NCBI GenBank assembly: GCA_050273025.1
Contig: CP158635.1
Location: 7,316,001 to 7,380,000 of the forward strand
DNA from: Cenococcum geophilum
Taxonomy: Eukaryota
Direction of reading: 5' to 3'
DNA length: 64,000 nucleotides
Shown piece after piece: positions 33,005 to 35,906 of this stretch. A program made the translations under genes and the position numbers. Each line of letters opens with the position of its first letter. Position 1 is the stretch's first letter. The notes beneath the pieces are model-generated. The model was not told the origin of the DNA. It did no database searches and saw nothing but the letters and a program-made list of their open reading frames with translations.

Positions 33005-33384
33005 TATATAATATAAGCAGTTTCCGCAAGCTTTGCATTTACATAGAGAAATCCTTTTAGAGCGCCTAACGCTAAAGGCCCTTAGACGGCAGGGTAAACT
33101 TAAGGTTAGTAGATGGTTAAAAGAAAGTGGCGTTTTTTTTGGTGGAGAGTAGTGACACTTTAGTATTAGTGAGTGCTCCTTCAGTCTGCCTTTTACCTCA
33201 GCGAGCTCAGACGTGATTTTTTAGCTAGCGTCGGAATAACCTACGCCGTCTTCCGAATTGCAAAATCACGTCTGAGAGGCTTTGGCGAGATTTGTTAAAA
33301 TTATAACCAAAAACCGCCAAGCGGAGATTACGGATATCTAATTTATTTATTTATATAACGCATTATTATTACTAAAAGTTAATA

Positions 33385-33731
33385 CAGTCGAAACTCTTTA
33401 GTACGATATCTGATTACAACGATATACTCCATATTACGATCTACACCCCTTAATCCAAATTTTTTTGGTGTAATATTACGATATACTGACTATTCACAAT
33501 ATCGTTAAGTTTTCCCTACCAAAATCGTTATAACCAGTAGAGATTTTGTATGGGAGGGGTTATACTTAGCCTGTGAAATAAATGCCCTATACCCTTTTGG
33601 GATGCTTAGCCACGCTTTAGCCTCCTTTTTCCTGCTTATTAACCCAACACGTGACTCCATGTATAACAATACCATTGGTATTACGATACGGTCGGCCGTA
33701 CGACCCGCATCGTTATAAAGAGTTTTGACTG
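33385..33731. mobile_element. Tc1/mariner-pogo type MITE (347 bp) nested in element 1
   Basis: TIR CAGTCGAAACTCTTTAGTACGAT / ATCGTTATAAAGAGTTTTGACTG; TA on both sides. Confidence 0.85.
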
Positions 33732-34019
33732 TATAATATTTTTAAGACTTAGGGCTTCTAAATGGTATAAATTTTATAATACGGCTATTGCTTAGTCCTG
33801 ACATTAATTTCGTCAAAGTTAAAGAACGCGTTGTTAAAATTATGACCATATATTATATCTTATTAAATAGTCTGCTAATATAGATAAAACTATACAGATA
33901 TGTAGATATCTACTATATAAAGCTATTGCAACACCTAGTAGGTGCTATAGTTGGGTCCTTCCTTGAAAATATCCTCCCTTGGCCTAGAGTGCCTCTGCTA
34001 CTACTAGGGGGTAAGCTTT

Positions 34020-34940
34020 GGGCAGAGCCTCGTGCAGGGCCCTAGTAGAGCTTTGTGCAGAGCTTCGTGCAGAGCTTCGTGCAGAGCTTCGTGCAGAGCT
34101 TCGTGCAGAGCTTCGTGCAGAGCTTCGTGCAAAGCTTCGTGCAGAGCTTCGTGCAAAGCTTCGTGCAGAGCTTCGTGTAGAGCTTAATGCAGAGCTTCGT
34201 GCAGAGCCACGTGCAGGCGTGCAGACGTTCGTACGGGCGATCAGTTGCAGAGACATTTGTAGAGACGATTGTATGGGCAATTGATCAATTGATTGTATGG
34301 GTGTTCGTACGGGCGTTCGTACGGGCGATTGTAGAACCTTCCTAGTATATTAGTGCTGCGTGTTAGTAGAGCTTTGGAGCTCTATATAGGGCTTCGAGCA
34401 GAGCCTCGAGCAGAGCCTCGAGCAGAGCTTTTACAGAGCTTCGTACGGAGCTTCGTGCAGAGCTTTTGTAGAGCTTTAAGCAGAGCTTCGAGCGGAGCTT
34501 CGAGCAGAGCTTCGTGCGGAGCTTTAAGTAGAGCTTCGAGCGGAGCTTCGAGCAGAGCTTCGTGCGGAGCTTCGAGCAGAGCTTCGTGCGGAGCTTCGAG
34601 CAGAGCTTCGTGCGGAGCTTCGAGCAGAGCTTCGTGCGGAGCTTCGAGCAGAGCTTCGTGCGGAGCTTCGAGCGGAGCTTCGTGCGGAGCTTCGAGCAGA
34701 GCTTCGTGCGGAGCTTCGAGTAGAGCTTCGTGCGAAGCTTCCAGCAGAGCTTCGTGCGGAGCTTCGAGCAGAGCTTCGTGCGGAGCTTCGAGTAGAGCTT
34801 CGTGCGAAGCTTCCAGCAGAGCTTCGTGCGGAGCTTCGAGCAGAGCTTCGTGCGGAGCTTCGCGCAGAGCTTCGTGCGGAGCTTCGTGCAGAGCTTTTGC
34901 AGAGCTTTGGTAGAGCTCCGTGCAGAGCTCCGTGCAGGTC
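34020..34940. repeat. 12-bp minisatellite (GCAGAGCTTCGT and GCGGAGCTTCGA variants) in two blocks
   Basis: About 34045-34210 is a simple 12-mer array; about 34390-34935 has alternating variants. Confidence 0.95.
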
Positions 34941-35906
34941 TCCCCCTGAGTTTCGCTCCGCAGAGCTCTCGCAAAGCTCCACAGCTCTACGTAGAGGGCT
35001 GGCGGCGTGGGCGTAAGCGTTCAGCGTTGGTGTTTACTGAGCGGCTCAGCGGTACAGAGGTAGAATTAGGGCCTCTACAGCGACGAATTCCTCTCAACGT
35101 CGCGCGCGTATAAGGAGCTGAAGATCTCATAACTTATAGAGTAGGCTTTTCTCTATAATTTGGTGTACTTTTAATGTTAATAGGTATTATGGGAGGGTAG
35201 ATCAATTTCGTTAAAGTTGATGAGGTCTTCTCATATAAACTGTGTTTAGGTTTTCCTACAAATCTCGCCAAGTCTCTCAGACCAAGAAAACGATTGCCGT
35301 CCTAAATCAGCTTAGCGGACGGTGCGGATATTCCTATATCCGCGCAATCGTTTTCTTGGTCTGAGCTTCTGAGGTAAGTCTGCCTTTGCCGTCTGAGTCG
35401 CTTACTAAGTACAAAAACGCGGAGAGTGATTATGTAATCCAAATCCGGGAGACTTGACAGGAAACTTTACGCTCGTGTGGAAGCCACTTGGAACTTTCTG
35501 CGACGAAATCCCACTCACGTCAAACCCTGTCCTCCCAAGCTTACCCTTAAAGGTCACTATCCTGACCGCATCATTGCAGAGCATTGTCTTTCTCTGCACC
35601 TAATATATTTGTCGGTTCATCCTTTGCAGCTATGGCCTAGTTAGGGCCAACCAAATATTGAATTCACCGACCTTTTCTTTTCCCTGGCTCTGACGCTCTG
35701 GCATTCGGCACTATTTAGTTGGTAAAAACCTGAATTCCCCTGCTAGCATCCTGTGTATTCTTGACCCTCTAATCTCTCTTTGGGAGCAGTTCGACTATAT
35801 ACCTATCCTTGTATCATCCATAGCCCATCCCCTGGCTGCCGACCTACCTGTATCCTTTTAACATTTGAAAACCTCTCATTCGGACTACGTCTACCATAAA
35901 CCTAAA

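Follow-up and report, generated by a model that had tools for sequence, protein, structure and literature searches.

Academ transposons are among the least characterized superfamilies of eukaryotic transposons, and we know of no transposition mechanism that has been tested for them. Their AcademH lineage is reportedly treated by Kojima in a 2020 article in Mobile DNA. According to the accessible parts of two studies, AcademH elements are found in Ascomycota, Basidiomycota and Mucoromycota (PMC10799480) and make duplications of 9–10 bp, compared with 3–4 bp for AcademX (PMC10045372). The accessible part of a third states that the RNase H-like domain of Academ had no Pfam counterpart in 2017 and that Muszewska et al. 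deposited a profile of their own (PMC5751038). Here we analyse a 64,000-nucleotide stretch of Cenococcum geophilum DNA (contig CP158635.1, forward-strand positions 7,316,001 to 7,380,000; hereafter the window, to which all positions given without a locus name refer). The window contains a transposon, element 1, each end of which is split by a self-complementary module. We consider it probable (roughly 60% for the two statements jointly) that element 1 is a deletion derivative of a DUF6589/Academ-type cut-and-paste transposon and that the module is a selected cis-element working as folded DNA.

Element 1 and its relatives

Element 1 is 2185 bp in size, spans 33193–35377 and has TT...AA ends. 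It is flanked by a perfect 9-bp target-site duplication (TSD), GTCTGCCTT, which does not occur elsewhere in the 64-kb window. Its terminal inverted repeats (TIRs) are each divided into an outer block and an inner block of ~25 bp. The outer blocks read TTACCTCAG-CGA-GCTCAGAC on the left and, in reverse complement, TTACCTCAG-AA-GCTCAGAC on the right, and are thus one indel apart; the inner blocks are separated by one mismatch and one indel. Between the two blocks lies the hairpin module. On the left, 33206–33220 pairs with 33262–33276 (15 bp, 100%) beneath a weakly folding loop, and on the right, 35276–35297 pairs with 35344–35365 (22 bp, 100%) beneath two small hairpins, CCGTCC/GGACGG and GCGGATAT/ATATCCGC. 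DNA folding gives energies of −18.7 kcal/mol (z −6.2) for the left end and −36.1 kcal/mol (z −10.8) for the right, and the fold of either end is matched by 0 of 200 shuffles. An earlier note on this DNA (the original prediction) had described the duplication and TT...AA ends, the matching outer and inner blocks, the two perfect stems and the small hairpins as we find them. Absent from it is the fact that the lowest 7 bp of each stem are formed by the CTCAGAC of the outer block and the GTCTGAG of the inner block. The features of element 1 and of its insertion site are as follows.

33184–33192, no strand: left TSD copy, GTCTGCCTT, present as a single copy at the paralogous empty site L104:145–294
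33193–35377, minus strand (that of the remnant transposase frame): element 1, non-autonomous, 2185 bp
33193–33212, plus strand: left outer TIR block, TTACCTCAGCGAGCTCAGAC
33206–33276, no strand: left hairpin, type A (a 3′-end type), 15-bp perfect stem, 41-nt loop, z −6.2
33270–33295, plus strand: left inner TIR block, GTCTGAGAGGCTTTGGCGAGATTTGT
33383–33731, no strand: nested 349-bp TA-flanked inverted-repeat element, identified by its inverted repeat and by contig junctions
34014–34937, no strand: array of a 12-bp tandem repeat, AGCTTCGTGCAG, 78 copies
34993–35133, minus strand: remnant of transposase open reading frame (ORF) 1, first 47 codons, 89% identical to ORF1 of locus L006
35258–35282, minus strand: right inner TIR block
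35276–35365, no strand: right hairpin, type B (an ORF-proximal 5′-end type), 22-bp perfect stem with two small hairpins atop, z −10.8
35359–35377, minus strand: right outer TIR block
35378–35386, no strand: right TSD copy
33007–33192, minus strand: degenerate terminus X, inner part, with GTCTAAG-GGCCTTTAGCG at about 33066–33087; depth repetitive in the runs
35387–35413, minus strand: terminus X, tip part, ...CTTAGTAAGCGACTCAGACGGCA

Element 1 carries no transposase, as the original prediction had it, but for the 47-codon remnant, and the retention of these N-terminal codons makes it an internal-deletion derivative. The nested 349-bp element has inverted ends of roughly 25 nt (TACAGTC...), and contigs of three public runs (X1, X7 and X9) join 33382 to 33732, so that other copies of the family exist without it. 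Within family members, no 8-mers are more enriched than those of the 12-bp array.

Contigs of four public runs (X1, X5, X7 and X9; X5 and X7 represent organism B) were placed on 32800–36000. One X1 contig enters the right end of element 1. In X5 and X7, the match of contigs carrying the single-copy right flank ends at 35380 and 35377, the element boundary, beyond which the contigs continue for 82–84 letters of non-element sequence, and a loose X5 end at 33190 reads into the right flank of element 1. The organism-B runs are without the insertion. The virtual empty site matches L104:145–294 (85% over 150 nt across the junction, with the 9-mer present once); that site is paralogous, because the flanks of element 1 are themselves repetitive. 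Differences between copies are mostly C>T and G>A, resembling repeat-induced point mutation (RIP). Element 1 is a recently mobile, non-coding copy. Its host, the degenerate terminus X, reads on the minus strand ...CTTAGTAAGCGACTCAGAC-GGCA, junction, AAGGCAGAC...TTTACCCTGCC-GTCTAAG-GGCCTTTAGCG, and the insertion point is 4 nt into the 5′ arm of the terminus X hairpin.

Relatives were collected by scanning public metagenome contigs with a pattern made from the conserved end letters, a pattern that itself required the hairpin module. The scan gave at least 122 loci (labelled L); all counts of loci and termini below are among the matches listed. The listed loci and the window contain 130 strict terminus matches (121 distinct); a relaxed search gave 155 termini (144 distinct), two of which were removed as hairpins read in reverse, and 142 termini were retained. 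Pairing of opposed termini yields at least 13 complete elements of 600–3822 bp, all 13 with a 9-bp duplication (11 perfect, 2 with one mismatch). L046:1475–2110, from another metagenome, is 636 bp long, with a type H hairpin at both ends and, by eye, an 8-bp duplication, TATACCGG. Summed contig depth, which is a sign of high repetition and not a copy number, is about 10^3–10^5 inside element 1 as against 32 in the single-copy right flank in X1. The family is thus a real, high-copy transposon family. Further copies with 9-bp duplications and sites without the element, both of which the original prediction had proposed to look for, have been found. With 13 complete listed copies, a paralogous empty site and absence in other strains, its view of the element as a genuine transposon stands, and the plan that it proposed, a self-folding hairpin inside a split TIR at each end, holds over the 142 listed termini.

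The window itself contains a second, diverged member. Its ends read TTGACTCAG-CAT-GCTCAGAC, then hairpin, then GTCTGAG-CCACTTTGGCA, the same plan as in element 1, and its interior contains foldback-like inverted arrays of an 11-bp repeat.

57379–58970, no strand: second family member, 1592 bp, diverged, found by sensitive self-comparison of the window
57370–57378 and 58971–58979: TSD of the second member, TGCTCTGGG, 9 bp
57392–57485, no strand: hairpin of the second member, type D, z −9.1
58877–58957, no strand: hairpin of the second member, type E, z −8.6

About ten types can be distinguished among the 142 listed termini. All share the 7-bp base of the stem, whereas the next 8–15 bp are type-specific (sequences include GTGATTTT, CAAGAAATCGATTG, CATAGAATCAA, CACATGGGAC and GGTAGCCAAGAG), with an opposite arm complementary to them in every type. 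Folding z-values lie below −3 in 97% of the hairpins, with a median of −7.7. Arms of 12 nt pair at 9.15 of 12 positions when both come from one terminus and at 3.8 of 12 when they come from different types. An alignment of 31 termini from 10 types contains a 21-pair stem in which 83% of cells are paired; its covariation is 0.386; shuffled alignments give 0.130 (0 of 500 reach the observed value), and sliding the partner gives no more than 0.155. Five variable pairs beside the conserved base show three to five Watson–Crick types each, and the helix that they form with the base is 98.4% paired. This pattern of substitution shows that stem pairing is maintained through compensatory change.

Module length varies from 50 to 80 nt, so there is no fixed helical phase between outer and inner blocks. 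A stem carrying two small hairpins is found in types B, C, D, E, F and H, and the loops share GCGGATAT/ATATCCGC and CTAAC-like motifs; CGGATAT occurs 9.6 times per kb in hairpins, 0.9–1.4 in element interiors and 0.2–0.3 in flanks. The two end types differ within every typed element (the right end of L058 is untyped) and their partnerships are fixed: B with A in seven elements, C with F in three, D with E in one and B-like with c6 in one. The ORF-proximal types B, C and D are mutually alike, as are the distal types A, F, c6 and G; these separate 5′- and 3′-end hairpin lineages indicate that the difference between left and right ends is old.

Finally, family members tend to be found in each other. 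CTCAG or CTGAG lies within 15 nt in 15 of 140 flanks, compared with 2.2% of control windows, and 13 of 139 flanks are located within a terminus other than their own, mostly in stem arms (coordinates in the host termini: 4, 15, 17, 17, 24, 29, 32, 32, 44, 83, 97, 98 and 106). Several further elements are paired tip to tip, 7–21 bp apart (loci L003–L122). Insertion into the stem arms of resident copies is a lead only: the sample is small, some cases are possibly copies of one event and the comparison with interiors is confounded.

The DUF6589 transposase

The autonomous partner is represented by L006, in which two ORFs start about 245 bp from a type B terminus and read inward. ORF2 matches Pfam DUF6589 with an E-value of 9.6e-73. 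A DUF6589 gene is found in like position and orientation beside type B or C ends at L044, L029, L063, L043, L051, L016, L052 and L060, and the transposases form two subfamilies with 48% protein identity. For these copies the sequence covers 4.1 kb each, short of every 3′ end. ORF1 and ORF2 are offset by +1 frame at an equivalent place in both subfamilies (L006:1092–1162; L063 at about 5060–5113). No GT-AG intron restores the frame in L006 or L063; a 64-nt GC-AG intron with weak splice sites would do so in both subfamilies.

The transposase ORF is followed by a 1.1-kb non-coding tail, which is 80–87% identical in DNA between subfamilies whose proteins are 48% identical, and which contains tandem repeats bearing GCGGATAT. 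This similarity suggests either recombination between the subfamilies or strong constraint. Besides the two examples below, the tail is present in L043, L016 and L044.

L006:3060–4150: tail of the first example
L063:6714–7799: tail of the second example

A 107-aa ORF on the minus strand of the tail (L006:3609–3929) is intact only in L006 and broken in four of five copies. Its only longer relative, to which it is 70% identical, is a 206-aa uncharacterized protein with the source name Cenococcum geophilum 1.58, in which no Pfam domain was found.

DUF6589 forms a large family. All 110 homologues found with a word index carry DUF6589 only, and those with names are fungal ‘hypothetical proteins’; a profile search retrieved 6441 DUF6589 representatives at E ≤ 0.001, and 24 long members contain no additional Pfam domain. 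Pfam transposase families other than DUF6589 match 0 of 47 family proteins at E ≤ 1, comparison of the protein profile with PDB sequences gave nothing relevant, ESM Atlas gave no usable match, and the searchable literature on DUF6589 (PF20231) amounts to one passing mention with no discussion. An AlphaFold2 model (predicted local distance difference test (pLDDT) 86.2; predicted template modelling score (pTM) 0.87) has an RNase H-like core with an all-helical insertion of about 240 residues after strand 5. The best Foldseek matches are Hermes chains (E 7e-3, probability 0.99), and exhaustive structural alignment gives Hermes (Z 11.2, 297 residues aligned), avian sarcoma virus (ASV) integrase (Z 10.1), P element (Z 9.9, 290 aligned), Tn5 (Z 9.5) and RAG1 (Z 6.3). 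Candidate DDE residues occupy the triad positions: D38 (YDNFD, strand 1), D198 (GDQKT, after strand 4) and E473 together with D469 (helix after the insertion). From this model, the DUF6589 enzyme of the autonomous relatives is predicted to be an RNase H-fold DDE transposase of roughly 900 aa. The model of L006 ORF1, the N-terminal region, is all helical (pLDDT 75, best Z 5.8); its helix-turn-helix-like matches have Z of 4–5, below the meaningful level, and name no DNA-binding fold.

The Academ profile RNase_H_Academ, from the supplement of PMC5751038, was compared with DUF6589 by eye over 6 of its about 19 parts, with no formal score. The three catalytic motifs correspond as follows.

First D: Academ profile q-f-D-N-w-D, positions 2–6 being fDNwD (D3 with p 0.91, N4 0.90, D6 0.75), with n-g at 25–26; DUF6589 V-Y-D-N-F-D or Y-D-N-I-N, with Q-E-N-G about 21 residues on
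Second D: Academ profile y-v-v-l-t-g-d-q, positions 185–192; DUF6589 L-V-Y-G-D-Q-K-T
E helix: Academ profile W444...D450 (0.91)-e-a-l-E454 (0.91)...K462; DUF6589 W/F-F-E-x-D469-R-L-N-E473...K480

In the parts compared, the order of the motifs is identical and their spacing similar (188 and 263 profile positions in Academ, 160 and 275 residues in DUF6589). Scored by hand from the printed emissions, the three ungapped motif windows give roughly 15, 8 and 4 bits against the profile. DUF6589 is most likely the Academ transposase core, as far as these motifs can tell. The 9-bp duplication, which fits the 9–10 bp of AcademH, points to the AcademH lineage, which is defined by a helicase. The label ‘unclassified’ given by the original prediction is therefore superseded at the level of the superfamily by Academ-like motifs, and the ORFs of the long copies, which it had proposed to identify, prove to include a predicted DDE transposase with DUF6589 beside type B and C ends.

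Two other assignments were rejected. A hAT element is contradicted by the 9-bp, not 8-bp, duplication in 13 of 13 elements and by the lack of a hAT Pfam domain, and the likeness to Hermes is one of shared core and insertion architecture. A Helitron, HUH or parvovirus-like element is likewise contradicted by the 9-bp duplications and the DDE RNase H-fold enzyme, and the parvoviral or HUH analogy drawn by the original prediction is not supported.

How the ends may be read

In the reading that we prefer, the outer 20-bp block would carry the cleavage end, the ~25-bp inner block would lie further in, and the 57–80-nt self-complementary module between them would extrude as a hairpin or cruciform, often as a three-way junction. 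Once folded out, the module would bring the outer and inner blocks together whatever its length, and its small hairpins would present GCGGATAT-type motifs to the transposase. A helicase, if the full element has one, might help extrusion. In resident copies the folded module would attract new insertions, which would explain the nesting. We infer both that the hairpin forms in vivo and that the transposase reads it.

Several points weigh against this reading. With loops of 41–46 nt, unaided cruciform formation is unlikely, and extrusion from the duplex is something that we only infer. Not every type shows the T-shape: the two-hairpin fold is not clear in types A, J and K, and A, short J and K are weakly structured inside. 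The covariation rests on about ten independent end types only. RIP-like C>T and G>A changes affect the two arms of a palindrome alike and can pass for compensation among termini of one type, and gene conversion from arm to arm could preserve complementarity without function. The Academ comparison, made by eye, covers only part of the profile. Helicase domains were found in 0 of 57 interior ORFs and in neither L006 ORF1 nor ORF2, over the first 4.1 kb of each copy; the 57 ORFs are P0250 and 56 of the 123 ORFs that are 100 aa or longer, after overlapping tandem-array ORFs and previously scanned ORFs had been dropped. The 24 long DUF6589 homologues likewise contain no helicase, and no longer fused form of DUF6589 was found, which is weak evidence.

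The main rival, which we regard as unlikely although it has to be taken seriously, is that the module is never folded and acts as a duplex palindrome of sites (GCGGATAT pairs and CTCAGAC/GTCTGAG) for a multimeric transposase, its arms being kept alike by gene conversion or symmetric mutation. The recurrence of GCGGATAT/ATATCCGC pairs in the loops, the four- to fivefold enrichment of CGGATAT in element interiors as well and the predominance of RIP-like transitions among copies all suit this explanation. A precedent is provided by Muta1, whose 10-bp palindromic terminal motif is, in the accessible part of the source, read in duplex, a restored palindrome restoring binding (PMC5499845). However, the variable stem positions share no sequence across types and are still 98% paired, whereas a protein reading sequence would conserve sequence and not complementarity. 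In addition, the distance between the arms is 41–80 nt and keeps no phase. Although long palindromes are as a rule unstable, the module is retained at both ends across subfamilies whose transposases are only 48% identical.

A second possibility is that the hairpins act in RNA, with transcripts through the ends regulating the transposase or feeding small-RNA pathways. Type B and C hairpins do lie upstream of ORF1, which starts about 249 nt from the tip, and the stems tolerate G–T changes, which are G–U pairs in RNA. The module is, however, present at both ends in mirror orientation, and with only 13 nt separating it from the tip there is no space for an upstream promoter. A search of 33000–35600 against Rfam at E ≤ 1 gave chance-level matches in the tandem array only, leaving the hairpins unmatched, and 0 rows are recorded as RNA among the runs with the locus. 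We consider a function in RNA improbable.

Slightly less probable still is an origin of the hairpins outside the element's own ends, as small independent foldback elements or footprints of excision that landed at a hotspot within a terminal repeat of the ordinary kind. The nested flanks described above, mostly in stem arms, and the position of element 1 itself in an arm of terminus X are what such a hotspot would produce. The borders of the module, however, are inverted (CTCAGAC/GTCTGAG) and not direct, and no duplication surrounds it. Moreover, it sits at the same place in all 142 listed termini, a count to be read with the fact that the scan pattern required it, and the 5′-end types (B, C and D) and 3′-end types (A, F, c6 and G) are distinct lineages with fixed partnerships.

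Finally, that the family is Mutator-like or Foldback, and not Academ, is very improbable: its 8–9-bp duplications, within the 8–10 bp range of MULE/MuDR elements, its 11–12-bp tandem arrays and the inverted arrays of the second member are as in Muta1 and foldback Mutator-like elements (MULEs), but the Pfam families MULE and Transposase_mut match 0 of 47 family proteins at E ≤ 1, the conserved H233 after strand 5 lies in PGLFH and is thus GxxH (G at −3) and not C/DxxH, the second D stands 275 residues from the E, and all three catalytic motifs match the Academ profile, so that of the two candidates named by the original prediction AcademH is retained and Mutator/MULE is not.

The reading of the module as folded DNA can be extended to a broader and distinctly tentative proposal: Academ-type DDE transposases in general may read their ends as folded DNA, in the form of a covarying hairpin or three-way junction possibly extruded by their own helicase, and such structures in resident copies may be preferred targets. 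If this were so, recognition of folded ends would explain the helicase of AcademH, and the family would be the first case of structure-specified ends among eukaryotic DDE transposons.

Surroundings and comparison with known systems

The window contains a pogo/Fot1-type DDE_1 ORF, a multi-KH protein, a P450 and MFS transporters, a gene content that marks it as fungal. The pogo/Fot1-type element (30886–33006) ends in terminal repeats of 42 nt that are 98% complementary and encodes DDE_1 and HTH_Tnp_Tc5 in an ORF of 380 aa; it appears to be inserted in an old element X that is also the host of element 1, and a copy of the sequence around it, lacking the pogo/Fot1-type element, lies at about 12969–13220. 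Positions 1–20000 contain AT-rich DNA (30–40% G+C) beside DNA of 45–55% G+C, with old repeat copies, and look RIP-affected. A 208-nt inverted repeat (97%, 14-nt spacer) is located at 14233–14662 and a 150-bp tandem duplication (98%) at 24056–24355.

The analysis links a large family of orphan proteins, DUF6589, with a transposon whose ends are defined, whose duplication is 9 bp and for which there is evidence of recent movement. A long hairpin within each end that has been preserved by compensatory change across diverged subfamilies is unusual for a DDE cut-and-paste element. It gives a testable idea of how the ends are recognized and, if a helicase is present, of what the helicase is for. The family inserts into its own termini and can account for a sizeable fraction of a fungal genome. 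What is new is an element, most likely of Academ type, that has ends split by covarying hairpins, is very high in copy number and nests in copies of its own family, although an existing catalogue may already list the family or its ends.

Self-folding T- or Y-shaped ends recognized as structure are known from parvoviral inverted terminal repeats and from the subterminal hairpins of IS200/IS605; unlike the family described here, these systems insert without a target-site duplication, and their HUH nucleases act on single strands. In piggyBac, as in the split ends here, terminal and internal repeats are separated by spacers that are unequal on left and right, but piggyBac has a TTAA target, short spacers lacking self-complementarity and a different transposase. 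With hAT (Hermes) and P element, whose duplications are 8 bp, the predicted DUF6589 fold shares the RNase H core and the large all-helical insertion after strand 5, and these are its best structural matches; it differs from them in having no sequence similarity and no BED, THAP or hAT-dimerization domain.

Muta1 and the foldback MULEs resemble the family in that they have duplications of 8–9 bp, subterminal tandem repeats of 12 bp and, inside the end, a palindrome whose pairing pattern is important when the transposase binds, as given in the accessible part of PMC5499845. The palindrome of Muta1 described there is, however, 10 bp long, at the very tip and in duplex (PMC5499845), whereas here a 70–94-nt hairpin lies 13 nt inside the end, and the transposases belong to different families.

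The closest resemblance is to Academ. The family shares with AcademH a 9-bp duplication (9–10 bp in AcademH; PMC10045372) and a fungal host range, and its three catalytic motifs, like their order and spacing, agree with the Academ profile over the parts compared (PMC5751038). It differs from AcademH in that no helicase was seen in 4.1 kb per autonomous copy or in 24 long homologues. Finally, whereas fungal Academ elements are described, in the parts of the literature accessible to us, as low copy, the family to which element 1 belongs is very abundant.

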